From positions 96,001 to 160,000 of the IMG/VR virus record IMGVR_UViG_3300045988_161114: a DNA stretch of 64,000 nucleotides; one strand, 5' to 3'. Of the stretch, positions 19,634 through 55,048 are shown piece after piece. Made by a program: the position numbers and the translations under genes. Source of the stretch: a virus. How positions within the stretch are numbered: position 1 is the stretch's first letter; every line of letters starts with the position of its first letter. Under the pieces are notes generated by a model. The model saw nothing but the letters and a program-made list of their open reading frames with translations. It did no database searches and was not told the DNA's origin.

Positions 19634-21583
19634 CTATCTATATGTTTTACTCATATTCGATCTATAATCCTTGAATTTACCATATGCACTACTTCTTGTA
19701 ATAAGTTTTCCAGCTCTACCAGAGCTTGGTTTAACTAATCCAGACCTTCCATAAAGTCTTTTAGCATCTCTGGATAATTCATCAGTTGTTTTTCTTTTCT
19801 CTATAGTAGTTTGACTATTATAACCCTTATACGTTTGTTTTTCAAAAGGCAAAATTGTGTACTCTGAATATCGTCTAGTGTCAAGGATTGACTCGTATTT
19901 CATGTGCAGTCCACATACAGCTATCATAAATGCGTCTAGGTCATGATCGCCAACCTCAGGATTTTTGGCTTCATATATCTCTCTGCCAGAAGCGTTTCTT
20001 GTTTTTACAACATAACCCTTCATTTGCTCAACAATAGGCTCAGCTAGTTTATTGTTTAGTGAGATGAGACCTTTTTCAAGCATCCTTTTTACTGTTTCTA
20101 CCATAAAGTTTTTATAGTATTTTTTACGTATTTCTCCTGTAACTACGTCTACAAGATCCAATGTAGAAGAGAAGTTTACTGGCTGTACATTTGCCAATCT
20201 TAGGTCTGGATGATCTTTTGGCAATTTACCATATGCATCTAATGCAACCAGTTTAAGTTGTTGTACGTTTGCCTCACCAAATCCTTCATCTACGAATATG
20301 AAGTCTGGGATGTATTGCCTATTTAACTCTTTTATTTTTTCTACTGCTGCTACCTGAGTCCATCCCTCTTTCCTAACATTGTCCATTGAGCATACAAAAA
20401 CCTTATCTTCCTTTTTAGAGTATGCAACTATACATATGCGCGTACCAACTTTATCGGCGTTCCAGTCACATCCAAGTATAAGGATATAGTCTTGCCTATT
20501 CATAAGTACATCTGCTATAGGTGCATCAAGTTTTATTTCTTCCGCCCTTGTTATGAATTCAGTTTGGAATACTGCATTGTCAGCAACACCATACTCCGCC
20601 TGAATCTCTTGGATGTAACCCATTACAGAGGTTGAAGACCTTAGGTCTTTATCCATTTCATCGCTGTAGTGAGGAATAACGAATGATGGGAAATGGAACT
20701 CTTTGTACTCTTTAGAATTTGATAACTTAAATAGAATGTTCTCACCCATTGGTGTAGATGTACATGTAAACTCTGTATCCTTTTTATCCATAAGAATTGC
20801 GATTACAGAGTCGAATGCAGCCTTAGTTAAGAAGTCTGCTTCGTCTATTATTAGCCAGTTAGCACCTTGACCACGAATTGAGCCACCATCATTACCAGCA
20901 GTAAATGCTTTTAGTGTAGAACCGTTTTTTAACGTTATCTTTTGATATGGTGATGCAACAGATTGAGATACTAAAGAACTCCATGATCCAATTTCTGGAT
21001 TTATTTTTCTTAATAGTTTTCTAACTGTGTCTGTTATCTCTTTTGCTTGTGATTCAAATGGGGTCACTACAAGGATTTGGTAGTTTTCATTCTTAACTAA
21101 TCTATCAACAATATCTATTGCTAGTCCAAATGTTTTACCGGCGCGTCGTCCGCATCGAATAGTTTTCTTCTTAGCGGAACATACAACCATCATTTCCTGA
21201 TGCCATCTTCTTGCAAACAGTCTTTTATCTGGGTCTTCCTGATCTATATCTATATTGGCGTCTGCCCAAGCATACGGATTCTTTGTTTGCTCTATTTTAC
21301 CAAGCTCTTCGTCTGAGAAGTTAGCTTTTAATTCATCAGGCATTTTACCTATTATAGTTTTAGGACCGCTACATTCTATTGTTATAGCCCCATACTTTTT
21401 GATTTGGTTCATCTGACAGATTCTACACATCTCTTTTGGATCAGTATTATAATTCTTTTTCTTCAGATAATCTTTCCAGTATGTTTCGTAAAGACCTAAT
21501 ATACTGCTAGCAACCTTATCGTCTGGAACATCTATTTCAGGACTATTAATTTTACTTTCATCAACTATTGGTATTACACCCAT
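19634..21583 (-). CDS. terL: terminase large subunit (649 aa)
   Basis: Walker A RCGRRAGKTFG and Walker B NWLIIDEADF, with a C-terminal nuclease-sized domain. Typical size and position ahead of the portal. Confidence 0.88.
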   Translation of the reverse strand: MGVIPIVDESKINSPEIDVPDDKVASSILGLYETYWKDYLKKKNYNTDPKEMCRICQMNQIKKYGAITIECSGPKTIIGKMPDELKANFSDEELGKIEQTKNPYAWADANIDIDQEDPDKRLFARRWHQEMMVVCSAKKKTIRCGRRAGKTFGLAIDIVDRLVKNENYQILVVTPFESQAKEITDTVRKLLRKINPEIGSWSSLVSQSVASPYQKITLKNGSTLKAFTAGNDGGSIRGQGANWLIIDEADFLTKAAFDSVIAILMDKKDTEFTCTSTPMGENILFKLSNSKEYKEFHFPSFVIPHYSDEMDKDLRSSTSVMGYIQEIQAEYGVADNAVFQTEFITRAEEIKLDAPIADVLMNRQDYILILGCDWNADKVGTRICIVAYSKKEDKVFVCSMDNVRKEGWTQVAAVEKIKELNRQYIPDFIFVDEGFGEANVQQLKLVALDAYGKLPKDHPDLRLANVQPVNFSSTLDLVDVVTGEIRKKYYKNFMVETVKRMLEKGLISLNNKLAEPIVEQMKGYVVKTRNASGREIYEAKNPEVGDHDLDAFMIAVCGLHMKYESILDTRRYSEYTILPFEKQTYKGYNSQTTIEKRKTTDELSRDAKRLYGRSGLVKPSSGRAGKLITRSSAYGKFKDYRSNMSKTYR

Positions 21584-22698: not shown

Positions 22699-24361
22699 AG
22701 TGCTTATTACGTTCCTCCCAGTTTGCTTTGCCTACGCCAGCAGGCATAGATGCATAATCCAATGAATGGAATTGTCTTATTGTTGGGTCTGCATACTGTC
22801 TCTGTCTCAATCTTTGCTGATCTTCTCTTATTGCCTTAACCTTTAGGTCGTCATCATATGAATCCATAGATGCATACAGTCCTAGTGCAGCAACACCTAG
22901 TCCTAATACTCCATAACCCTTTTTAAAGTTGTCTGGAAGAAGTTCTCCTAAAACTGGGACATTTTTTATCTTAGTGTCGTATACCTTTTCTGCACCTTTT
23001 ATAAATTCTTTTTTAGGATCTTTCTTATTGGATTCTTCTATAAAAGCTCTTATATCAGATATGATAGTTTTACCAAGCAGGATAGATTCAACTGCGTCAT
23101 CGGCAATATTGGATATATTATCTATTGATGCCATGTCTGCATTTTTGATTATATCTATAAAATCATCTATATTGCCGTTTGACCTTTTCCATGCATCATC
23201 AAGATGTCTCTTTGCTGTAGTGTTGCCATACTTGTCAACCTCCTCCATAACTCGTTTTATGGACTCCTCTTTTGAGTCAGCATGTATATATTTGGGTACG
23301 GATATATTAGATTCTTCATTTGTTATATTATCGACTATGGTTATAACTGTATCACCAGCTCTACGTCTTGCATCAAATCTACCTGTCTCTTTATACTTCT
23401 GAATGTTTGATTTTAGGACTTTCATCCCCATAACTTCTCTAAGGTATGGCTCAGCTTCTCTCATTCTTGTAAATATATCTTTTGTTTCACTAGAGATATT
23501 CCCAGAAATAAGTTCTTCTCTTATAACATTCATGCGCTTAAAGATGGCATACTGCTGTCTTGCATCAGACATTGCTCCGTGTACCTCTTCCTCACCAAGC
23601 ATTAATTTTGAAAGGAAGTCTACATTATGACCAATTTTTGCATAAGACGTCGGAACTTTACCCTGTGCAGCAGCTTTTGTCAAAGTAGCTGCTGTAAAGT
23701 CCATAAGGTCTGCGACATAGAATCTGTTTTGTCCGGCAGGCATAGAAGATATCCTTCTATCTATCTTCTTATATGCTTCAATAACCCTATCGTAAGCCTT
23801 ATCACTAGCCCCTAGTGTCGTAGCATTTTTGGCTTCTTGTAAATGTCTACTTACCTCGGCAGGCCTGTATAATTGGTTAACTCTTTCACCGTTATACATT
23901 TGTGATTCTATCATATTAGCATGTATTGATAACTTATCAGATTCTGGTATTGATGATAGCCATCTTCTTTCGAATTGAGAGTTCTGAATAAGTATCATAC
24001 CTCTCTTGTTGCCGCCATTGCCAAATATATCCTCGTTGATATGTTTATGTATGTCAAATTGTCTGGAATGTCTATTATCAGATTCAAAGTATTTTCTTAC
24101 TGTTTCATTTGTATTGTAGAAATCTTTATCTTTTAAAGCATTCCATTCAGCTTTTTTATCTATTGAATTGTCAGGATCATAAAAGAATTCTTTGGCGATG
24201 CTATTGCCATTATTAGTGCCGTATGCACCAATGGACCAGACTCTTCCTTTACCAACAGTTCTTGTTACGCCATTATATTCTGACGTGATACTTCCGTTTG
24301 GGGTAAGAGATGTAGTCTCTATATCGAAAGATGTTATATATCGCCATAGATCATTGTTCAT
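22688..24361 (-). CDS. DEDDh (DnaQ-like) 3'-5' exonuclease domain protein with C-terminal hydrophobic anchor (557 aa)
   Basis: ExoI SFDIETTSL (D13, E15), ExoII QNSQFERRWL, ExoIII VHGAMSDARQ (H261-x4-D266). C-terminal GYGVLGLGVAALGLYASM. Confidence 0.7.
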   Translation of the reverse strand: MNNDLWRYITSFDIETTSLTPNGSITSEYNGVTRTVGKGRVWSIGAYGTNNGNSIAKEFFYDPDNSIDKKAEWNALKDKDFYNTNETVRKYFESDNRHSRQFDIHKHINEDIFGNGGNKRGMILIQNSQFERRWLSSIPESDKLSIHANMIESQMYNGERVNQLYRPAEVSRHLQEAKNATTLGASDKAYDRVIEAYKKIDRRISSMPAGQNRFYVADLMDFTAATLTKAAAQGKVPTSYAKIGHNVDFLSKLMLGEEEVHGAMSDARQQYAIFKRMNVIREELISGNISSETKDIFTRMREAEPYLREVMGMKVLKSNIQKYKETGRFDARRRAGDTVITIVDNITNEESNISVPKYIHADSKEESIKRVMEEVDKYGNTTAKRHLDDAWKRSNGNIDDFIDIIKNADMASIDNISNIADDAVESILLGKTIISDIRAFIEESNKKDPKKEFIKGAEKVYDTKIKNVPVLGELLPDNFKKGYGVLGLGVAALGLYASMDSYDDDLKVKAIREDQQRLRQRQYADPTIRQFHSLDYASMPAGVGKANWEERNKHYEY

Positions 24362-24804
24362 TTTATTTTATCCAGTATAGCTAAATATTCTTTATTATTT
24401 TTGAATAAATCATTTTCTGTTACGAATCTGAAGGACATATTTTTGCCTGTAGATTTTATTTTTCTTACCGCGGCCCTTGCTTTTAATTGCACATTTGGAT
24501 CCTTGAGCATTATAGTTGGTTTAACCTCACAAAGTTCCATTCTTCCGTCTTTGTACAATACAAGTACATCTGGAATGTATGTACGCTTCTTTAGGTCTAC
24601 ATCTACATATCGTATCTCTATTGGTTCTGAGAGATATTTAATTACATTAGGATCGGATTCTAGCTGTTCAAAGAAGGCATATTCATATGCTGAGCGGTAT
24701 TTCATATAAGATCTGTTCTTTACAGATTTATACATACCGCTTTTGTACATATCATTTTTATTGAAATATATTCCGTTATTTTTCTTGCTCTTTTTTCTTG
24801 GCAT
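24358..24804 (-). CDS. TnsA-N-like PD-(D/E)xK endonuclease (148 aa)
   Basis: YRSAYEYAFFEQLESDPNVIKYLSEPIEIRY followed by YIPDVLVLYKDGRMELCEVKP (D...ExK). Overlaps both neighbouring genes. Confidence 0.55.
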   Translation of the reverse strand: MPRKKSKKNNGIYFNKNDMYKSGMYKSVKNRSYMKYRSAYEYAFFEQLESDPNVIKYLSEPIEIRYVDVDLKKRTYIPDVLVLYKDGRMELCEVKPTIMLKDPNVQLKARAAVRKIKSTGKNMSFRFVTENDLFKNNKEYLAILDKIK

Positions 24805-26164
24805 TTAAGAGCTCCTGAATTGCTGGATCTACATATCCATTGCCGCTTGATGCTCCGACACTTTTTAATATCATTTCAATCTTAGATGACAGTGAAGCCA
24901 TTTCTGATGTCATACCACTTTGAATAGTGTCAACTGCTACTTTTGCTGCATCTTTTCTAGTTGCCATCAGCGTTTCTAATATTTTAAGGCGATTCTTTTT
25001 AATGCGTTCTTTTATATTAAAATACTTAGATACGTCTTCTTTTATTATTTGTCCACCATTTGCATCAAAACCATAGAAATCTTCTTGAGACATATTTTGA
25101 TCTTGAAGAGCTAACATAAGTGTTGCTCTCCTTTCATACAGATCAAGTTCAGACAATTCAGATATCAGATGCATTTCAGTTATTCTACTAGGATCAGCAT
25201 TGAATTCGTCTAGATATCCTTCTATTGATTGTCTTAGATATGTTTGTTCATATATACATTGTGATCCTATTGGGGCTTTATTAATCTTATTAAGTTCACA
25301 GTTGTGAACTAAGATACCATTTGCAAAGAAATTAGAATTCAGATTCACAGTTATGTCGTATACATCTTCTATTCCTGAATATTCGATACTCACTATTTCA
25401 GATTCTAGAAGATCTCCATATTGATTTACATTTTCAATATTTGTTTCTAATTCCTCATTGTAAAATAAATCAGTTACTAAAACCTTATGTCCTACTTCTA
25501 AACCATCATCAATAGAGATATATGAATATACATCTCCGTTAAAAGCATAGAATAAATGATTTGTTGTAACTTTTAAAGAATGACCGTGTTCAGTAACAAC
25601 AGTGTAGACTTCTTGTCTACCTGTTGGTATAACTGATCCTATAACTATATCACTACGGATTTCTTGTGTTTTAGTATCAAAGCTATATATTTTATCTTTG
25701 TCTACTATATCGGTTATCTTTTTAGCTATTCCATATCTCATAGATACTAGTGTATCACCAGTTACACATGTTTCAGCAAATGGACATTTAGAACCTCTAC
25801 ATATCATTGGTGCTGCTGCTGTTACACCTCCAGAAGTCATTTTAGCAATACTTTTATTAAGATTCTTTGCTTCATCTTCTGTTAATGCAATATGTTTATA
25901 TTGATCTTCATCAATATCAAATGCTCTTAAGTAATTTGTTTTGGTTAGTTTATCACCACTAACAGCTATTGCTTGTGATGATAACAAAATTGGAATTGTT
26001 TTACTAGTATCACTACCAGAGGATATGGATTTCATTTTATCTTCTAAAACAGATTCTACAACTGTTTTACTTTTATTAGAATTTGTCAGTTGTTCTGACA
26101 AATTGAATACAGTATCTAGTTCCGATTTAGGAATTCCTTTACCATAATTGAATTCATTATTCAT
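24776..26164 (-). CDS. intein-containing Cys4 zinc-ribbon protein, first gene of the packaging operon (462 aa precursor, ~306 aa spliced); small-terminase-like role only guessed
   Basis: Extein junction ...MICRGSKCPFAET | CELNKINKAPIGSQCIYEQ... The gene heads the terminase-containing operon. Confidence 0.75.
   Translation of the reverse strand: MNNEFNYGKGIPKSELDTVFNLSEQLTNSNKSKTVVESVLEDKMKSISSGSDTSKTIPILLSSQAIAVSGDKLTKTNYLRAFDIDEDQYKHIALTEDEAKNLNKSIAKMTSGGVTAAAPMICRGSKCPFAETCVTGDTLVSMRYGIAKKITDIVDKDKIYSFDTKTQEIRSDIVIGSVIPTGRQEVYTVVTEHGHSLKVTTNHLFYAFNGDVYSYISIDDGLEVGHKVLVTDLFYNEELETNIENVNQYGDLLESEIVSIEYSGIEDVYDITVNLNSNFFANGILVHNCELNKINKAPIGSQCIYEQTYLRQSIEGYLDEFNADPSRITEMHLISELSELDLYERRATLMLALQDQNMSQEDFYGFDANGGQIIKEDVSKYFNIKERIKKNRLKILETLMATRKDAAKVAVDTIQSGMTSEMASLSSKIEMILKSVGASSGNGYVDPAIQELLNAKKKEQEK
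25301..25768 (-). mobile_element. mini-intein (156 aa, no homing-endonuclease domain)
   Basis: Starts CVTGDTLVSM (Cys1, aa 133, codon 25766-25768 checked). Block B KVTTNHLFY. Ends EDVYDITV...NFFANGILVHN followed by +1 Cys (codon 25298-25300). Confidence 0.85.
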
Positions 26165-26388
26165 ATTTTTTCCTATTGTTAAATATCTTATAATCTTTTA
26201 GAAATGTTATTAAAATAACTAATAATAAATAAAAAGCTGTAAATGATATAAGTAAGTCTCGTTATTTAATAAGACATTCCATTTAAGCTTATAATCTTTT
26301 TAATATAGTATACAATATTTATATTTTTTAAACAATATATTTATTTATATTTTTTAATATGATCCCATATTTTCTTGTAGTGTATTAT

Positions 26389-26417
26389 AACACTGCGTTC
26401 TTGTGGAACGCTGTGTT
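26389..26417. promoter_or_regulatory. 12-bp imperfect hairpin in the late-operon upstream region
   Basis: AACACTGCGTTC ttgtg GAACGCTGTGTT (one T-T mismatch), flanked by DNA of ~10% GC. Confidence 0.5.
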
Positions 26418-26479
26418 TAAAAATTTAAAAATGTTTAGACATCTGTTGAAGAATTGTTTAAAATAGATGTATACATTTT

Positions 26480-27120
26480 TAATAGATACAATTAGGCCTA
26501 GCAAAGCAAGGCTTTCATCTAAAAAGATATAGCTGTATCTGCCATGTTATTCCCAGTTCCACTTTCGTAACTTCCTTTGCGATTATCAAGCAGTGATCCA
26601 AATGATCATCAGAAGTAAGCTTTTACACTTTGTCGTGTCTTAACTAACAGGATATTGATTACTCCAAGTGTCGTTATTTCGCAACACTCTGTTAAGTTCT
26701 GGTTCATTATATTTATAGTCGAGCAACTTTTATAAGTTGCTAGGTTATATCTCATTGCACTATCTATATAACCCTAAAGTTGTCTGTCTGACCATACGGC
26801 TCGATTTCGAGGATAATCCGTTATTTGCAACAGGTCATTATTTTTATACTGCCCAACTTTCATAACTCTTTATGTATTACTTTTTGTAAGGGAGCTTACA
26901 CAGGGAGAATTACGCTACTTCAACAAACAGTTTTTCGATACCTCCCTAGCTAGGCTTGCCCACATCTTGGGAGATCATTATACTTTCGCTACCGGCCTCT
27001 ACCGATTATTCTATGAGTTACTTGGTATAAGGTCAACTCTCTTTTAGTTCCGATGCCGTAGTTTATCCCGACTAGATACTAACCTCAACGAGTTAACAGA
27101 GCGAATTATACTCTCATTTT
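26480..27120. ncRNA. candidate large structured non-coding RNA or cis element (ORF-free GC-normal island); strand unresolved, minus weakly favoured
   Basis: The track shows no ORF of 60 aa or more in any frame. Sampled lines are 38-53% GC against ~10% in the flanks. Local hairpins include AGCAACTT ttat AAGTTGCT (26722-26741) and 26667-26688 (G-U only if read on the minus strand). Confidence 0.3.
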
Positions 27121-27155
27121 ATACAGTTGTGTGTTAAGGAAGTGTAAAAAATAAT

Positions 27156-27171
27156 GTAAAAATATTTTTAC
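27156..27171. promoter_or_regulatory. perfect 16-nt palindrome, operator-like
   Basis: GTAAAAATATTTTTAC, overlapping a direct repeat TGTAAAAA (27143-27150 / 27155-27162). Lies 43 nt upstream of the sigma70-like -35. Confidence 0.45.
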
Positions 27172-27213
27172 ATATACTAAAAATAAGTGGTTGTTTTTAA
27201 ATATAAAAAAGTT

Positions 27214-27242
27214 TTGACTTTTTATAAAAACATAGGTATAAT
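27214..27242 (+). promoter_or_regulatory. near-consensus sigma70-type promoter
   Basis: TTGACT (27214-27219), 17-nt spacer, TATAAT (27237-27242). Lies 55 nt upstream of ATG 27298, which has an AAGGA RBS. Confidence 0.7.
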
Positions 27243-27297
27243 TCAAATCTTAGTCACCACAAAGAAGATTATTATTTTTTATTTAAGGATTTAAATT

Positions 27298-28125
27298 ATG
27301 CGTTTTGGCAATACTTACGAAGACAGAATTTTCTTTCACCAACCAGAAAGACTGACATTTTACAACCTACAAAATACTTGTGCACTGTGCCGTACCGGCC
27401 GCACTATGGTAACAACCCATAAAAAATATGGTAACATTGTTGACATCTGGGGCTCAAACGATTACTGTACAGGATACCTGTCAAATGCTTTTGTAAACAT
27501 GCAAAAGAAAGACTATAACGAAAAAGTATATAAACTAGAAATATACCCTGTAGTGTACATGGTTTCAGAAGAGGAAAGAAAATCAATGGCAGGTATTGAA
27601 GAACTTGAAAACAAATATATTCTTAATTCTGCATTGATGGTTTATAGATCTGGAAAACATCCTCAATACAATGTATCGGTAGCTAAAACAGATTATAATC
27701 ATGTTAAGGTAAAAATGAATTACAACGTAATTCTAGAGCAATCACTAGATGGTGTTGTATTACCGCTACGAGAACTGATAGCAAGGATGACAGTATCAGC
27801 GATCAACTACAATAGAGCGATTAAGTTTATTCCTCATCAAGATATGATTATTGAACTGTGTATACCACAATCTGTTATGGATGAGATCAAAATGGAGCAA
27901 GACAGTGAACAAACAGACTTCGATAGTGAAGCGTTACTGATAAAACTTCTTGCGAATGTTCTTGGTTCTGATTTTGGAAGCTTCTCAAATAAATTCAATA
28001 GAGATAAATTCAAGATCAAAATAATCGATGACTCAACCGAAGTAAAAGCCGAAAATAATTTACCGGCAGTGTACAGAGAATTGATTGATGTATATCGCGG
28101 ATCATTCGTTTCAAATCCTCTATAA
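27298..28125 (+). CDS. hypothetical protein (275 aa), probably host-RNAP-transcribed
   Basis: ORF with RBS, preceded by a consensus promoter and followed by a hairpin terminator. Confidence 0.75.
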   Translation: MRFGNTYEDRIFFHQPERLTFYNLQNTCALCRTGRTMVTTHKKYGNIVDIWGSNDYCTGYLSNAFVNMQKKDYNEKVYKLEIYPVVYMVSEEERKSMAGIEELENKYILNSALMVYRSGKHPQYNVSVAKTDYNHVKVKMNYNVILEQSLDGVVLPLRELIARMTVSAINYNRAIKFIPHQDMIIELCIPQSVMDEIKMEQDSEQTDFDSEALLIKLLANVLGSDFGSFSNKFNRDKFKIKIIDDSTEVKAENNLPAVYRELIDVYRGSFVSNPL

Positions 28126-33145: not shown

Positions 33146-36100
33146 ATGGCTAACACTATCAACACAATCAACTTCTTTGCTTCTCTTCCTGAAGATCGTC
33201 AAACTGCTATCAAAGAGGTGGCGAATCAACTGGTATCGGCAATTGGAACGGTTGCTACAAATGAACATAGAGATGTTAAAATCTCTGTACACGGCGTAGA
33301 GATTGCGATGCGCATTAAATCTGTATCGCGTAAAGGCAAAGCGTTTGTGACCTTTGTTAAGGGTCGCAATAACGGAGCAGCTCTTCAATTAATGGGCGCC
33401 CTTAAACTTGTAGAGGGTCGCAACTATGCAGTCAATAGGGTTCTTTGCAGTGGTTACGAGTCTTTCGTTAACAAATTCTTTATGTTAAATAAAGAAACCA
33501 CAATTGTTGAGAAGAAAAAAGAAGTTACTTTCCGTAAGGAAATCATCACTTCTGCGGAGGCATTCTTCGGTTTTGTTGTAAAATTGTCTTCCGATTCTAA
33601 AAACAAGATCGAAGATATTCTGGATGCTATGCGTCAACGTCCAGGTCTCAGATATGCGCCCGTATCACATATCATGCCGCGTGCTCAACTTGCCCAATAC
33701 CGCATTCCTGGTTGGGAGATTGAAACTGGTGAACTGGATAGCATGAATTTATCTCCAGACATCAATAGCAAGTTGGCGTCTATTGGTGCATTTAGCCAAG
33801 GCGCAGTTGATTCTATGGCTGCAGTGTTCGACAATGATATGACATACAGCATCAATGATAGCACTAAGTCAATCGCCCGTTTTGGATTGAATCCATCTGA
33901 ACATAAATCAGTATCTATAGGCGTTAAAAAAGTTGCAGTCATTGTAGGTGTCGATATGCCAGAAGGTTACAATCGTCTCAACGATAGCATCTATACTTCT
34001 ATTGTTGGCGGTGCTATACATGCCAACAAAAATGAGTACCTGAAATATGGTGCTGTCCGCGTCATCTCTGAGAACCATGCAAAAGGCGTGGCTGCCTTTA
34101 TTGGTGATGAGTTTGAGGCTGCTGCTAAAGAACTTGGCGTTCAATACATCACAGGCAAATTAAAATCCAAGTCTGTAGGCTTAGGATATAATCTTGTTAG
34201 CAATGGTAAAAGCCTGAAGGAGTTTATCATTGACCTGTACAACGATGCTGAATTCCGGGCTGAGGTAAACAACACTCTGGCTTCTTTTGTTAAAGAGGTT
34301 AAGATTGGCGGGCTTGTTTATAAAGTTATCATTATCAACGAAGAGCTGCATGTAACTTCTTTCTATTCCCTGGAGGGATGGGAATATACTGAGAAGTTCC
34401 TGAACAAGCAAGAGGATATCAAATCTCATGCCTCTATTGATGAGGCTGAGTTTGAATTATTGGGTGTTGAACAAATCGACGAGGATTCTTTATCCGAAGA
34501 GGAAATCGAGACTCTGAATGCTAGCAGCGTTATGAAATTGTTTATTGAAAGCATCAAAACCAACCCTGATTTCAAAGTAGGGGAAGAATTGCTTAATATG
34601 AAACGCGAAGGCCTGATCACTAAGAGCAAGAAAGTGGGCCGTATCTCTCTGTTGACCCTTGATTCTATTAAAGATCAATTTGGCGAAGAAGCCCTGAAGT
34701 CCTTCTTGGAGGCAAACATTGATAACTCATACCTGGTTGAGTCATCTATTATGACCAAAGACCTCTCTCCTCGTATTTATGAAGAGGGTGAAATCAAGTT
34801 CATCTTGAAAGAACTGTTTGATGATAGCATTGCTTATGCGGGTAACGGAACTCTGAAGGCAGGGAACTTTAAGTCTTATGGCAAGGACAAACAAATGATC
34901 TCCAACACGATCGATCGTTTGCTTAATGGTGATTCTTCAATTGGTTGGGTTGGTCTGACCAATACGGGGTTTACTATTGAGTTTGCTGGATACGATTTTG
35001 TGTTCCCAGCATGGGGCAAACTTAAAGGCCAGATCATTCTTCCTAATGAGGATGATTTGAGTGAGGGCCTTATTGGTGGCAAGCTGGTGGGCACTTTGAT
35101 GTCTATCTACCAAATGATCAAGTTCCAAAACAATAAAGGTGCTGTATTGACCTATGCCAAACATATGTTGACCTTAGAGCAACTGTTCTTGGGTAGCCGC
35201 ATTACCAAGATGCGTATGTCTAATAATGCGAACATGATACTGGTTCCACAAACAAAAGATCTGGTAAATGTATACACTACAAACAAGACTGTCCGCAAAG
35301 GTATCCAAGAAGATGGTCAGCTTGGCTATATCAAATACCCAGAATTGATGCTGCAATCATTCAAGTTGGTTAGCGCCAAGTCTGATACACCGTTCTGGAC
35401 ATCTTCTGAAGAATATTCTATTTTTGATATCCTGGAGGAGTCTGTTCTTCGCATTCCTCCAATGCTTGCTTTGTCCAACCAAGACGATTTCGACGGTGAT
35501 AGAGCCACCGTTTTCTTTGCTAAAGGTCTTGATGGTTACGATACCTGGACAACTGAACATACTCTTGGGAAAGATAATCTGATTGGTGCGTATCAGGCTG
35601 CATATGTTGCAGATGAAGAAGAGTCTTTGTTAAAAGGTTTGGATGTTATCAATGATAGCACTATTAAGTGCTATCCTGTTGAGGAGTTCCAAAGTGGTGT
35701 AGAAAAACTGGTTAAAGCTAAGCAGGATACCGGGAAATATACCAATGCCTTGGTTCAATCAATTCCACTGTTCGAAGCCATGACTGCTTTGAAAGACGGT
35801 TTATCTAAAGAAGAGGCACGTATTGCTATTGCCTCTATGGGTGTTGCCGTACAGAACGGTGCAATTTCACAAATGAAGCATGAGAATAGGGGTTATTCAC
35901 TTATCGATATGATGTACCTGTTCTCAGCTTCTGAGCGTAATGCACACGACGACTCTATCTCTTTGGCTGATGCTTGGGAAGAGGCAATTGAGTCTACAGT
36001 CGGCAACAAGGAAATGGCACGTCGCATCTCCACAATTATTGCTGAGAAGGCTCCACGTATCATCGAGCACAGCAACATGGTCAAACTTGGCAAAGTATAC

Positions 36101-36496
36101 AGTGAGGGTGAGTACGATTACTACAACCACTTCGGTACAAGAGCTACAGGTCTGGCTTTGTCTCGTATGGGGTTTGGCTCATACATGCAAAACCTTAATG
36201 GTGTGATCTATTCCTCTATTGATGGAACCGAAGAGGAAATCAAAGATTATGTAGATGCTACAATGTCTATTGGTCGTACATTTGATGACTTCTTCAAAGT
36301 GGTTGAGTCTCGTGGTACTAAGCACTCTACTGCTCCCAAAGCCAGCATCTACGGAGCAATAGGTATGTTCTTTGAAGCTGCCGAGAAAGCTGCCAAATCA
36401 TTGAAAGCTATCCAAGCAATCAATGTGTTTGCTGAGCGTGAGGCCTCTTCAACTGTTGAGGAACAAGCTTCAGCCTTGAATGACATGGGCTTCTAA
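33146..36496 (+). CDS. single-chain two-barrel (beta-like + beta'-like) RNA polymerase candidate A (1116 aa)
   Basis: Beta-like GAVRVISENHAKGVAAF (aa ~303-317). Beta'-like IKYPELMLQSF...VLRIPPMLALSNQDDFDGDRATVFF, with the Asp triad at nt 35486-35500. RBS AGAAAGGA. Confidence 0.7.
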   Translation: MANTINTINFFASLPEDRQTAIKEVANQLVSAIGTVATNEHRDVKISVHGVEIAMRIKSVSRKGKAFVTFVKGRNNGAALQLMGALKLVEGRNYAVNRVLCSGYESFVNKFFMLNKETTIVEKKKEVTFRKEIITSAEAFFGFVVKLSSDSKNKIEDILDAMRQRPGLRYAPVSHIMPRAQLAQYRIPGWEIETGELDSMNLSPDINSKLASIGAFSQGAVDSMAAVFDNDMTYSINDSTKSIARFGLNPSEHKSVSIGVKKVAVIVGVDMPEGYNRLNDSIYTSIVGGAIHANKNEYLKYGAVRVISENHAKGVAAFIGDEFEAAAKELGVQYITGKLKSKSVGLGYNLVSNGKSLKEFIIDLYNDAEFRAEVNNTLASFVKEVKIGGLVYKVIIINEELHVTSFYSLEGWEYTEKFLNKQEDIKSHASIDEAEFELLGVEQIDEDSLSEEEIETLNASSVMKLFIESIKTNPDFKVGEELLNMKREGLITKSKKVGRISLLTLDSIKDQFGEEALKSFLEANIDNSYLVESSIMTKDLSPRIYEEGEIKFILKELFDDSIAYAGNGTLKAGNFKSYGKDKQMISNTIDRLLNGDSSIGWVGLTNTGFTIEFAGYDFVFPAWGKLKGQIILPNEDDLSEGLIGGKLVGTLMSIYQMIKFQNNKGAVLTYAKHMLTLEQLFLGSRITKMRMSNNANMILVPQTKDLVNVYTTNKTVRKGIQEDGQLGYIKYPELMLQSFKLVSAKSDTPFWTSSEEYSIFDILEESVLRIPPMLALSNQDDFDGDRATVFFAKGLDGYDTWTTEHTLGKDNLIGAYQAAYVADEEESLLKGLDVINDSTIKCYPVEEFQSGVEKLVKAKQDTGKYTNALVQSIPLFEAMTALKDGLSKEEARIAIASMGVAVQNGAISQMKHENRGYSLIDMMYLFSASERNAHDDSISLADAWEEAIESTVGNKEMARRISTIIAEKAPRIIEHSNMVKLGKVYSEGEYDYYNHFGTRATGLALSRMGFGSYMQNLNGVIYSSIDGTEEEIKDYVDATMSIGRTFDDFFKVVESRGTKHSTAPKASIYGAIGMFFEAAEKAAKSLKAIQAINVFAEREASSTVEEQASALNDMGF

Positions 36497-49218: not shown

Positions 49219-49528
49219 TGCATTAAATTGCATAAATTGACGTAAAAAGCAATCAAAATTTGTATGCATCTATTTATATCGGGTTTACATTCGGTATAAG
49301 TGGTGCATACAAAAACAAAACTTTGTAGAATATTGAAATATAAAGAAATATTCTTATGTAAAAGTTTATTAAGAAGTGTATGCAATTTAAATAGCTCAAT
49401 AAGCATGTAGTCATGCATCGGGTATATCAAACGACTTTTTTAACTGGGCCAAAGCATATTTTGTGTACATTTCTTAATGAGCTTTTGCTCATTTATTGCC
49501 GTAAAGGTGATATTTATTAAGATCGTTT

Positions 49529-49560
49529 GGACGCGGGTTCGACTCCCGCCAACTCCACCA
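49529..49560 (+). ncRNA. ssrA: tmRNA acceptor-piece 3' end (T-arm + acceptor 3' strand + ACCA)
   Basis: GGAC GCGGG TTCGACT CCCGC CAACTCC ACCA, nearly identical to the E. coli SsrA 3' end as I recall it. Confidence 0.85.
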
Positions 49561-49677
49561 AAAGACATTTCAAAGATGTTGATACTCTGAAAAGAGTTAG
49601 CGATTCCATATAGCCTATTTTTAACCCTATTACATTATTGCGATTGAGTTAAAATGTCTTATGAGATGTCTTCTGAT

Positions 49678-49760
49678 GGGGTTGTAATGGAATTCGACAG
49701 GCGGTGAATAGGGATATTGCTCGGCACGAGTTGCTTCGTAAAAGCAAAATTAAAATAAAT
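49678..49760 (+). ncRNA. ssrA: tmRNA coding-piece 5' region (acceptor 5' strand, D-analog, PK1-like)
   Basis: GGGGTTG pairs 7/7 with CAACTCC, including G3-U. TAATGGAATTCGAC. UUGCUU...GUAAAAGCAA pseudoknot-like pairing. Confidence 0.75.
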
Positions 49761-49799
49761 GCAAACGATGATGTTTACATGGTACGCGCCGCTGCCTAA
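49761..49799 (+). other. tmRNA tag reading frame ANDDVYMVRAAA + UAA
   Basis: AAAAUAAAU|GCA AAC GAU GAU GUU UAC AUG GUA CGC GCC GCU GCC UAA. Same context as the E. coli resume codon (..AUAGUC|GCA AAC GAC..). Confidence 0.6.
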
Positions 49800-50032
49800 T
49801 TTAGGTAGTTGAGCATAAATGTACAGGGTTTGGACAGTACCTGGTAACAGAAACTGTCCGAGAATTCTAACACTGCGGCTAGTGCACAGTGAGTTTCGTA
49901 ATCGTCTACGATTGGGTAGAGCTGGAATCGTAACCAGCAATTATAAAAGAGTAAATATGTTTGGGCATACCTAGTAACCAACTAGTGAAATTTAAACAAG
50001 CATATATTTTGTGGAAATAACTTAACCATATA

Positions 50033-51661: not shown

Positions 51662-54600
51662 ATGTACATTCGCTTAAAAGACATTCCAGTAATTGATGCT
51701 GATGCTACAGTTGCGGAGGTTTATGAAATTTATTCTAAACAGTTGCCACAGGATCCAAGACTTAATTGGAAACTGTTGCAAGATCGTATTGCAATGGAAA
51801 TTGTAAATGAGATTTCTGAACCGACTACAATTGAGATTCCTAAATCTTTTTATGATCTCAAATTGAATTGGCCTGAATTTTTGTTTGCAACCAAACATAT
51901 TGACAGCAGTTCTGACATTGAATTGATGAGTCATCATGAACTTATGTTTATGATGTTGTATGAACGCCTTGAATCTTTGTTCAAGTATGATCAACTCTTT
52001 ACTGAATTGATTCGCAAAGACATCAATTATGTCAAGAACCATGTATTGTATGTAACAAGTAATGCATACAATGCTGCTTTGAAAGAATCTTCTGAACTTG
52101 TTATTATTTCTCCTTATAATGAGTACAGTAAAGTTTTGACATATTTGCATCAAGATAAAGTTATGGGCGACGCATTGCCCATGTTGTTTAATCCATCCGA
52201 TCGTGCTATTAAGACTTCTGCATTATATTTTAATGTATTGCCCGGAAGTGAATCAATGCTTGCTGAATCTAATAAAATTATCATTTCTAAAAACGGTAAA
52301 GAGTTTCAGGCTCCTGGATTCCAAGTATTTAAAGATGAAAACGGTGGCTTTGTAGGTTATTCAAGTTTGTTCAAAGTTGGACAGTCTTTGCCTGCCCGTT
52401 TCAAGACTCATCTTAATGGTAATGCATTTGGTGTAAGCAATCCTTCTAAGTTCATCTTTTTACAGGATGCAATTGAAAAGGATGGTGAATTAATCACTAA
52501 GGATAATACCTTAGTTGATGCAGTAATGGTTTATAACGATATTGAATTGGAATCGTATCGTTTAGTAGGCGGCGAAATTGAAGTATCGCCTAAAGTAGGC
52601 AAAGAAATTGTGTTCACTCCTCGTCATATTGAAACTGAATTTGATGAGATTGATGTAAAAGTTGGACAGACTATTTACAGCAAAGGTGGGTACATTAAAA
52701 TTGGTTCACGTGGCGGTGAAGCAATTTATATCGAAATGGTAGACCATATTCAGGTTACTTCTATTGAAGAATCGGGATATAATGGGTCCGCCCGCATTGA
52801 TTATATTGCCTACTATAAAGCTGGTAATGCCCGTATTACAAGCCAAACTGGCTTGAAAGGTGTTACTAAAACTATGCGCAGTTGTGGCAAAATCAAGATT
52901 CATGAAGATGGCAAAGAAGATAAAATCATCGACGTGGATATTGTAGCTGGTATTAATAGCCTTAAAGGTAAAATGAATACTATTCGTCTTGCTCAAGCAG
53001 CTTTTGCATTTAAATATGGCTATTATACCAATGATAAAGATTACCTCGACAGTCTTAATGAAGAGGAAATCAATGCCGCTGTTGCGTCATTGCCTACTGC
53101 AACTTATGAAAAACGTATTAAACGTGTTGATGGTTATGATGATGAAATTATTGTAATTGAAAACGTTAAATACGGCCTGGTTCAGTATTCTTACACTGAA
53201 TTGGGTAGCCATTTTGCTAAGATTAAGAATCAAGGCATGTCATTTAATTGTTTGAAATATATTTGTCAAACAACAGATTCATCTCTTGGACAATATATTT
53301 TAGATAATTGTATTGATAAATCTGATAAGCAAATTGTTGAAGAATTGGCAAAAATCTTGTCAGATGAAGGTCATGTATTTGAATACGCTGATAATTATCC
53401 GTCATATACATTGATTGAATTGAAGTCAATGTTTAATGAACAGGACTTAATCTTGAGTCGTTCTGCTATTATTCCTACTAGCAGTAAATTGTTGGATCCT
53501 GAATTCAATAAAGGTTTCTATATCGACTTAAGTAAGGTTCGTTCTGGTACAAGTATTCGTGTACCATCTGCAGAGATTTTAAATAAATTCTGCGGTAAGC
53601 AAAATGATGGTCAATATGTATATCCAACTATGCTTATTGAATTGTCTAAAATCATTCGTGCAGCAATTGCTGGCCCTAGCCAGTATTTTACTATTGCGCC
53701 GCATCGTAATGAACGTAATCATAAGCGTCCTTCCGCATGGAATGGCTATTTGAATGCAATTAAATCAATGCTGTATCGTACTGAATTAGGTGGTCAAACT
53801 TATGTTAAATCACTTATTCAGCCAAGTCTCAAAGGTGTCAACCTTAAACAGGTTCATGATAAATATGTTCCTGAAGGCAAAGTCGTAATTCTTGATCGTA
53901 ATATTCTTGAGAGTATTCGTGAGTATATTTATGGCAAGCCTAATAATAAGACAACTGAAGAGGCAATGCTTGACCAGTTCCGTCCATTAAATGCATTTAC
54001 TTTGCGTAATCCGTTTTTATGGCGTTCACAGATGATTATTTCCCAACTTTGGGGAATTGATGAATTCAATGATTATCTTCAGGAGAATTATGGAATGACT
54101 GTCAATGATTATCTGGATGTACAGGGAAATCTGCATTGCGCTTTGATTTCTACTGAAATTGTAAGACGTAGCCATAGCGACAATGATGGCGACTTATTGC
54201 AAATTAGTTCAATACCAGGAATTGAGCAACAAGAAATGATGGCTCAATTCAAATTGGAATACTTTACTGAAGATCAAAAACAGTGGGATGAAGACTTCTT
54301 GTTGTCTGAGTATTCATCTATTGAAGATGTTGATTGGAGTAAAAAGTACGAATTGTATTATGTTCCAATTTATCCTAAGCATCCTGGTGATAATGCTTAT
54401 ATGGAATTTCTATGTTCATCAGCTATGGCTAAGAATGCAGTTGGTCCTGGTACAAATGATGCATGGGTATTTTACATGTTAGTTCAGCTGTATTATGGAC
54501 TGGCGCGTGATAATGATCCTAAATCGTATGTACCTTGGGAACGTAAACGTAAAGTACAACTTCGTATTAAAGAAGAAGACTTGTTTACTTATGACCATAT

Positions 54601-55048
54601 TTATACAATGGTTCTTGAAAATCGTGTAATTAATGCGATTAAACATGTGTCAGGTGGAGCTAGCTCTCATGCTGTCTTCTACCTCAAAAACATGACAAAA
54701 GACGACAAGAGTGTTAAAAAGGTAATTAAAAGTATCGAGAATGACTTAGGTTATTCAAGAGAAGTTGCCGTTTCTATTTGTCGTATTGTAAATTGGGCAG
54801 TTAATACCAATGCACTTGAAATGTGTAATAAGTTTTTACGCATGCACAATAAAGGTGCCCTAGTTGATCTAGGTGATGCGGATATTCAGATGTGGTTTAA
54901 ACACATTGTTGATTATACGTTCTTTGGCAGTATGCTTGCACCGATTTTTACCATTTATGGTCAAAGTCAAGGATTAATTCCTTTAGGCGAAAATGCAGAA
55001 AATAATGTGGCCGAAGTTATGGACACTTTTGACGCAATTGGTTTTTAA
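51662..55048 (+). CDS. single-chain two-barrel (beta-like + beta'-like) RNA polymerase candidate B (1128 aa)
   Basis: Beta-like AGNARITSQTGLKGVTKTM and IIDVDIVAGINSLKGKMNTIRLAQA. Beta'-like LRNPFLWRSQMIISQLW...HCALISTEIVRRSHSDNDGDLLQI, with the Asp triad at nt 54179-54193. Confidence 0.7.
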   Translation: MYIRLKDIPVIDADATVAEVYEIYSKQLPQDPRLNWKLLQDRIAMEIVNEISEPTTIEIPKSFYDLKLNWPEFLFATKHIDSSSDIELMSHHELMFMMLYERLESLFKYDQLFTELIRKDINYVKNHVLYVTSNAYNAALKESSELVIISPYNEYSKVLTYLHQDKVMGDALPMLFNPSDRAIKTSALYFNVLPGSESMLAESNKIIISKNGKEFQAPGFQVFKDENGGFVGYSSLFKVGQSLPARFKTHLNGNAFGVSNPSKFIFLQDAIEKDGELITKDNTLVDAVMVYNDIELESYRLVGGEIEVSPKVGKEIVFTPRHIETEFDEIDVKVGQTIYSKGGYIKIGSRGGEAIYIEMVDHIQVTSIEESGYNGSARIDYIAYYKAGNARITSQTGLKGVTKTMRSCGKIKIHEDGKEDKIIDVDIVAGINSLKGKMNTIRLAQAAFAFKYGYYTNDKDYLDSLNEEEINAAVASLPTATYEKRIKRVDGYDDEIIVIENVKYGLVQYSYTELGSHFAKIKNQGMSFNCLKYICQTTDSSLGQYILDNCIDKSDKQIVEELAKILSDEGHVFEYADNYPSYTLIELKSMFNEQDLILSRSAIIPTSSKLLDPEFNKGFYIDLSKVRSGTSIRVPSAEILNKFCGKQNDGQYVYPTMLIELSKIIRAAIAGPSQYFTIAPHRNERNHKRPSAWNGYLNAIKSMLYRTELGGQTYVKSLIQPSLKGVNLKQVHDKYVPEGKVVILDRNILESIREYIYGKPNNKTTEEAMLDQFRPLNAFTLRNPFLWRSQMIISQLWGIDEFNDYLQENYGMTVNDYLDVQGNLHCALISTEIVRRSHSDNDGDLLQISSIPGIEQQEMMAQFKLEYFTEDQKQWDEDFLLSEYSSIEDVDWSKKYELYYVPIYPKHPGDNAYMEFLCSSAMAKNAVGPGTNDAWVFYMLVQLYYGLARDNDPKSYVPWERKRKVQLRIKEEDLFTYDHIYTMVLENRVINAIKHVSGGASSHAVFYLKNMTKDDKSVKKVIKSIENDLGYSREVAVSICRIVNWAVNTNALEMCNKFLRMHNKGALVDLGDADIQMWFKHIVDYTFFGSMLAPIFTIYGQSQGLIPLGENAENNVAEVMDTFDAIGF

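Follow-up and report, generated by a model that had tools for sequence, protein, structure and literature searches.

A divergent HOLDH RNA gene, apparently longer than its Rfam model, in the divergent control region of a ~180-kb human-associated phage

What maintains a noncoding segment of ordinary base composition within an extremely AT-rich control region is the question raised by this locus. In the stretch of DNA analyzed here (64,000 nt, hereafter the window), the island at 26480-27120 has a GC content of 37.6%, compared with 19.0% and 18.6% for its flanks (26165-26479 and 27121-27297, respectively) and 34.5% for the whole window. No ORF of at least 60 aa from a start codon overlaps the island on either strand, the longest being 48 aa. 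This is in agreement with the preliminary description of the locus, which was made from the sequence alone and noted an ORF-free island of normal GC content within an AT-rich control region. The segment was also described as rich in stems. All the stems named there exist and belong to the RNA presented below, but the folding energy of the island as a single sequence was no better than that of its shuffles (minus strand, z = −0.76; plus strand, z = −0.10). Stem richness is therefore not significant by itself, and the case for a structured RNA rests on comparison.

The preliminary description raised the possibility of a large structured RNA, most likely of the minus strand, and called for an Rfam scan with attention to ROOL, GOLLD, HEARO, group I/II introns and ribozymes. 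We scanned the whole window at the gathering thresholds, and the region 26100-27400 in E-value mode with E up to 10. The default run with gathering thresholds reported a tmRNA only and no HOLDH. In E-value mode, the HOLDH model (RF02997) matched 27097..26723 on the minus strand only, with 312.3 bits and an E value of 3.2e-85. The alignment is full length, covering all 391 model positions (1-391), and thus all helices and conserved blocks of the model on one strand, with a mean posterior of 0.97 and few non-standard pairs. The absence of HOLDH from the default run is explained by its score, which is 7 bits below the gathering score of 319.4 bits. The seed of RF02997 is small, with 10 sequences (PMC11702757), and this threshold is a curation cut-off derived from it, not a biological boundary. 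At E up to 10, ROOL, GOLLD, HEARO, introns and ribozymes had no match in 26100-27400, nor did any of them reach its gathering score in any part of the window. The suggestion of a minus-strand structured RNA is thus borne out by the full-length HOLDH match together with the compensatory changes in homologous loci (see below), and none of the families singled out gave a match.

HOLDH is a known ~390-nt bacterial/phage RNA family and one of the 224 motifs reported by Weinberg et al. in 2017 (PMC5737381). In the searchable literature beyond the Rfam entry, we found only this discovery paper and a table entry in a structure-prediction paper, in which a K-turn is predicted in HOLDH (PMC11702757). 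The elements of the core in the window are as follows.

26723..27097, minus strand: HOLDH RNA core of 375 nt, corresponding to Rfam RF02997 positions 1-391.
27055..27072, minus strand: invariant hairpin GUCG-GGAUAAACUA-CGGC with a 10-nt conserved loop, the same in all clades bar one loop base.
26973..26969 and 26946..26942, minus strand: CUCCC/GGGAG stem of the model, closing the loop that holds the 5' strand of a long-range helix (see below).
26907..26903 and 26894..26890 (together 26890..26907), minus strand: two unpaired CUCCCU motifs in and beside a hairpin loop, from the Rfam consensus and the alignment.
26799-26820, minus strand: hairpin of the Rfam HOLDH model closed by CGG/CCG.
26722..26741, minus strand: final hairpin in the Rfam model, AGCAACUU-AUAA-AAGUUGCU, with compensatory changes among clades (columns 3-7 with 14-18).

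The stems first noticed by eye at 26722-26741 and 26799-26820 are thus model hairpins. As for the CTCCC and GGGAG words pointed out at the same time, one CUCCC/GGGAG pair is a stem of the model, and the remaining two CUCCC words belong to the unpaired CUCCCU motifs, which are conserved across clades, the second copy being missing in one subclade. The window copy has all the conserved unpaired blocks of the family, namely the GGAUAAnCUA loop, UGAAGUAGCGUAA, CUCCCU (twice), AGUAUAAA and AGAUAG...UGAG.

To place this copy among its relatives, we searched IMG/VR and metagenome contigs with two probes, the 275-aa protein encoded next to the RNA and the invariant 18-mer of the RNA (27055..27072). 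About 45 HOLDH loci were found, nearly all on contigs of 100-189 kb. They form five sequence clades with Rfam scores from 97 to 406 bits.

Window clade (window, L007, L010): 312 bits; neighbouring protein 93-97% identical.
Canonical clade with three subclades (L011, L014, L016, L024): 375-406 bits; neighbouring protein 37-40% identical.
L132 clade (L132): 387 bits.
L176 clade, the fifth (L176, cut by the contig end): 200.7 bits.
L085 group (L085, L042, L075): 96.6 bits.

The loci L003, L005 and L181 were rejected as chance k-mer matches, and a protein-profile search of IMG/VR for extra clades returned the same loci again. In every clade with visible flanks, the RNA occupies the same slot: a homologue of the 275-aa gene, pointing rightward, lies on one side, and an intein-containing gene of ~462 aa, pointing leftward, on the other. 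The copies scoring 375-406 bits, on phage contigs of ~170-189 kb, share the genomic context of the window, and even the flanking proteins of L085 are homologous to those of the window (28% and 41% identity). RNAalifold, applied to 26 non-redundant full-length sequences, predicted 78 pairs, 30 of which show changes on both sides; most of these two-sided changes separate the window clade from the canonical sequences, so that, compared with canonical members, the window copy retains the HOLDH helices through compensatory changes. Many of the pairs are G-U and hence valid on the minus strand only. From the model match and these comparisons, we identify the island as the gene for a divergent, previously undescribed member of the known HOLDH family. 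The family is also broader than the Rfam threshold admits, which misses the clades at 312, 201 (contig-cut) and 97 bits.

The carrier is a ~180-kb human-associated phage: a human metagenome contig of 184,711 bp also encodes an identical 275-aa protein. The closest isolate by the large terminase, whose gene lies at 19634-21583, is Acinetobacter phage ME3 (40% amino-acid identity). Among 50,697 GenBank phage records, neither blastn with the window region and a canonical HOLDH nor tblastn with the 275-aa protein gave a match. The RNA was not found in the GTDB representative genomes, where all 24 matches of the 18-mer were due to chance. The locus thus ties HOLDH, an orphan RNA family, to a defined phage lineage, a fixed slot and a host-type promoter.

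This promoter was read from the aligned intergenic regions, together with that of the divergent gene.

27105..27110, minus strand: −10 box TATAAT of a promoter belonging to the RNA itself; the model's first base lies 7 nt downstream.
27214..27242, plus strand: divergent sigma70-type promoter TTGACT-17-TATAAT of the 275-aa gene, with 11/12 matches; it belongs to the context, not to the RNA.

The motif GTATAAT is invariant in 17/17 aligned intergenic regions. In clades whose RNA starts at model position 1, the −10 box lies 6-7 nt from the RNA start, and in the L085 clade the promoter is placed ~27 nt further upstream. The −35 element is poor and not recognisable in the window clade (CACACA); in the other clades, including L085, L132 and L176, whose promoters were read, it is TTGACA, TTGACT or TTGACG at a distance of 17-19 nt. 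The divergent promoter, which had already been recognized as sigma70-type at 27214, is conserved in all clades.

Conservation of the locus is not confined to the Rfam model, but runs past it to 26484. A comparison of the window with the canonical clade by nhmmer gave one alignment, from the promoter region to ~26420-26480, and a profile of the whole unit matched end to end in 41/41 loci not cut by a contig end. The part beyond the model is arranged as follows.

26711..26720, minus strand: junction motif GACUAUAAAU, directly 3' of the Rfam model (GACU.YAAAU in the canonical and window clades).
26503..26710, minus strand: clade-variable interior of the 3' domain, with a GC content of about 36% and no ORF.
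26687..26668, minus strand: hairpin GUGUUG-N8-CGACAC in the 3' domain.
26484..26495, minus strand: conserved 3' tail CUAAUUGUAUCU, within the covariance-model match; conservation ends here.

The junction has the consensus GACUAYAAAU (26720..26711) and the end block GYUAGGCCUAAYUGUAUCU (26502..26484). The 7-bp stem previously seen at 26667-26688 is the hairpin listed here at 26668-26687. Identity between the window and canonical sequences is 51-56% in the core, 25-28% in the interior of the 3' domain and 60-68% in the last 37 columns. At this low identity, the interior is not alignable between clades. In the canonical clade, it forms hairpins with compensatory changes (CCAUGG/CCAUGG, CCAAGG/CCUUGG and GAUACC/GGUAUC) and an 11-bp stem whose loop, CUUACAAUU, is conserved. 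When a covariance model was built from the 3' domain of the canonical clade, its match in the window was limited to the last ~95 nt (26572..26478; 22.9 bits, E = 0.0018), and L132 and L085 gave no match; aligning the 3' domain across clades with MAFFT proved unreliable. We therefore claim no common structure for the interior, which is not conserved between clades and might serve as a tolerated spacer instead of a functional domain. A palindrome, UAGGCCUA, in the 3' block was considered as well and is not conserved in L018 or L132.

One edge of the island matches the predicted transcription start (27097), and the other the point where the conserved 3' tail ends (26484). As judged by conservation, the unit would comprise an RNA of ~615 nt (27097..26484) and terminator hairpins, with its own promoter, and the RNA appears to be ~240 nt (about 60%) longer than the public model. 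The boundaries 27097..26484 are suitable for constructs in structure work and also define a target for deletion and expression studies.

The 3' tail is connected to the core by a helix that RNAalifold predicted from the 26 sequences and that varies between the clades as follows.

26949..26955, minus strand: 5' strand of the helix, GCCUAGC, in the loop closed by the CUCCC/GGGAG stem.
26496..26502, minus strand: 3' strand of the helix, GCUAGGC, pairing with 26955..26949.
Canonical haplotype: core GCCUAAC, 3' strand GUUAGGC.
Window haplotype: core GCCUAGC, 3' strand GCUAGGC (26955..26949 with 26502..26496).
L132 haplotype: core GCCUGGC, 3' strand GCCAGGC.

Pairs were counted in an ungapped alignment of excised segments, in which form L132 was included. 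Across 8 distinct sequences, the 7-bp helix is paired in 56/56 cells, and 2/7 pairs change on both sides. When the 3' partner was slid by 1-3 columns, pairing fell to 0-57%, and the 3' 7-mer occurs once per RNA in each clade. In L132, the core variant was read first, and its exact complement was then found once, ~30 nt from the RNA end. The Rfam model pairs part of the core strand locally (ugGG/CCua), where a two-sided change was never seen. Support for the long-range helix is thus clean but thin, coming from two variable positions in three lineages, and it indicates that the Rfam HOLDH model is truncated and misses a long-range pseudoknot. The L085 clade has neither the core segment nor the 3' 7-mer, although its 3' block is otherwise recognisable; L132 reads CACAGGCCAGGCCCUUAG where L085 reads CACAGGCCCUUAG. 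This looks like a joint loss of both helix partners. The core of L176 reads GCCUUAC, from which the 3' end is predicted to carry GUAAGGC; that contig ends before the 3' block, and contig L180 begins downstream of the RNA. Pairing of the GGAUAA loop or of the GACUAUAAAU junction with the 3' tail was also inspected by eye and was not kept in all clades.

The RNA lies upstream of the head/packaging operon and is co-oriented with it, and it is back to back with the 275-aa gene. Two hairpins follow the tail.

26419..26482, minus strand: A-U-rich stem-loop (26482..26425) followed by AUUUUU, the likely first terminator.
26389..26417, minus strand: second hairpin, ACACAGCGUUC-CACAA-GAACGCAGUGU, with the stem kept and the loop varying within the window clade.

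The region of these two hairpins, downstream of 26484, folds at z = −5.2. The second is the hairpin that had been noted earlier at 26389-26417; it has 11 pairs and one mismatch and is without a clean U-tract on the minus strand. In the canonical clade, a hairpin also follows the 3' tail, several G+C-rich hairpins lie in the spacer downstream of the RNA, and an intrinsic terminator (GGAGGUAGC-UUGA-GCUACCUCC with a U-tract) lies ~90 nt before the next gene. From the promoter, these hairpins and the intrinsic terminator, we read the RNA as its own transcription unit, probably made by the host sigma70 polymerase.

The same arrangement could be taken to mean that the RNA is a giant cis leader of the head/packaging operon, a put-like antiterminator or a sensor that gates read-through past 26482-26389 into the 462-aa gene. 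Like HK022 put and EAR, it is a structured RNA that is upstream of and co-oriented with a long operon, directly so in every clade, with terminator-like hairpins between the RNA and the gene, and a search of 26165-26390 for a strong sigma70 promoter on the minus strand found none. However, a spacer of ~320 nt with 19% GC separates the RNA from the start codon, and this spacer is unconserved whereas the RNA is conserved. The several hairpins and the full intrinsic terminator of the canonical spacer also argue against read-through. The antiterminator RNAs put and EAR are smaller than this RNA by an order of magnitude. Furthermore, both flanking genes are retained in the L178/L179 clade (at 38% and 58% identity), and the operon there follows a 266-nt spacer in which no HOLDH was found (L179 540-805; L178 3666-4000), suggesting that in these phages the RNA is dispensable or located elsewhere. 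We therefore consider a cis-acting leader unlikely.

It was also proposed in the preliminary description that a DNA-level role was equally open. The island would then act as an origin, a packaging site or a nucleoprotein site, and its RNA features would be incidental or those of a primer such as ColE1 RNA II. The divergent, AT-rich control region would suit such a site, as would the short direct repeats in the spacers of other clades (AAGTAAGACCTTA in L180 and GGATTGG in L179). In the island itself, however, the compensatory changes keep pairing and not sequence, the many G-U pairs are valid on one strand only, and the first base of the RNA is preceded by a conserved −10 box. The cumulative GC-skew minimum at ~31-32 kb is about 5 kb off and follows gene orientation, none of the ~180-kb relatives has its contig ends at the locus, and repeat searches in the spacer of the window found no family above chance. 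These observations leave the proposal unsupported, and we regard a DNA site as very improbable. That the island is a decayed protein gene or encodes small peptides is barely conceivable: its GC content resembles that of coding sequence and short minus-strand ORFs of 29-48 aa are present, but all six frames of 26480-27120 contain 10-21 stops each, no ORF is common to the clades in position or frame, indels are not multiples of three and the covariance-model match is full length (E = 3e-85).

With these alternatives weighed, the reading that the island is a HOLDH noncoding RNA gene, transcribed leftward from its own sigma70-type promoter as one unit of ~615 nt that includes the 3' domain, is very probably correct. 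Transcription by the host RNA polymerase would start at ~27097 on the minus strand and proceed through the 375-nt core and the ~240-nt 3' domain to at least 26484, ending probably at the hairpins at 26482-26389. The 7-bp helix would tie the 3' end back into the core, and the whole ~615 nt would then fold as one unit. Compared with RF02997, the RNA in the window has every helix and conserved block and lies in the same slot as the above-threshold loci; it differs in that its clade is divergent, its unit is predicted to be ~240 nt longer and the core strand would pair with the 3' end instead of locally.

We read the product as a stand-alone RNA that would act in trans. The core blocks, loops and junctions are invariant, whereas the neighbouring proteins have drifted to 28-41% identity. 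This contrast suggests a precise three-dimensional fold, as in a scaffold, a decoy or a catalyst, rather than a simple antisense regulator. The RNA's own host-type promoter, the two conserved and exposed CUCCCU motifs and the proposed locking of the 3' end to the core fit a stand-alone RNA as well. Of the possible roles, all of them speculative, we rank first a scaffold or an RNA-only assembly, by analogy with ROOL and GOLLD, which are large phage/prophage RNAs that form RNA-only cages (PMC12286853). Like these, HOLDH is phage-encoded, would reach at least 600 nt with a complex pseudoknotted fold, combines conserved and variable parts and is without a known protein partner or function. Unlike them, it has no tRNA island nearby, and the locus has no Rfam match to either family at E up to 10. 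A second speculative role is that of a decoy that would bind G-rich sequences, for instance ribosome-binding sites, and a third is that of a component linked to the adjacent head/terminase genes. In the last respect, the phi29 pRNA offers a partial parallel, as a structured phage RNA with a host-type promoter, and the RNA gene of the window lies directly upstream of a head/terminase block. The pRNA has about 120-174 nt and a fold that differs from HOLDH, and a position next to packaging genes is not known to characterise the pRNA itself; its family gave no Rfam match in the scan of the window.

We further propose, giving the idea about equal chances of being right or wrong, that the Rfam family represents the 5' two-thirds of a two-domain pseudoknotted RNA of 0.62-0.70 kb, which would be an early product of the host polymerase in ~180-kb phages and, by analogy with ROOL and GOLLD, may build a higher-order RNA assembly or RNP for host takeover or head assembly. 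If this is true, HOLDH joins ROOL and OLE in size and complexity class.

Several other features of the region and of its relatives are worth recording. The 462-aa gene (24776-26164, minus strand) is the first of the leftward operon and is split by a mini-intein (CVTGDTLV...LVHN, followed by C) inserted in a Cys-rich motif (Pfam Intein_splicing, E = 5e-15), which is present at the same site in relatives of 41-58% identity. The spliced extein of 306 aa belongs to no PHROG family and received no function from PHROGs or Pfam. Between the intein gene, whose end it overlaps, and the terminase block, a 148-aa ORF (24358-24804, minus strand) has a TnsA-like endonuclease N-terminal domain (Pfam, E = 1e-12) and a match to the PHROG "head closure". 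The 275-aa gene (27298-28125, plus strand) is a lone rightward gene, back to back with the RNA and with leftward genes on its far side. Its family is restricted to this phage lineage, with only 4 protein clusters among 5.8 billion sequences. The protein had no Pfam or PHROG match, and an AlphaFold2 model built with 5 sequences was unusable (pLDDT 40). No Pfam or PHROG match was obtained either for the ORFs at 33146-36496 (1116 aa) and 51662-55048 (1128 aa), both on the plus strand.

In the AT-rich spacer upstream of the intein gene, two exact copies of AAAGATTATAAG lie 101 nt apart on the minus strand (26187-26198 and 26288-26299). The window contains no further copy, and the count is not above chance for its whole length; the two copies are possible phage-specific promoter or operator sites. 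In L180 (fifth clade), at least five copies of AAGTAAGACCTTAyT (at 125-215, and also at 459-474, 579-599 and 753-773) occur in the spacer that separates the RNA from the intein gene; they look like iterons or operators. The 266-nt spacer of L179 carries five GGATTGG repeats. The window has no tRNA genes, and its only RNA gene other than HOLDH is a tmRNA 22 kb away. This is a permuted two-piece tmRNA gene at 49435-49890 on the plus strand (tmRNA_permuted, 115.8 bits; alpha_tmRNA, 104.8 bits), for which ARAGORN gives the tag peptide ANDDVYMVRAAA.
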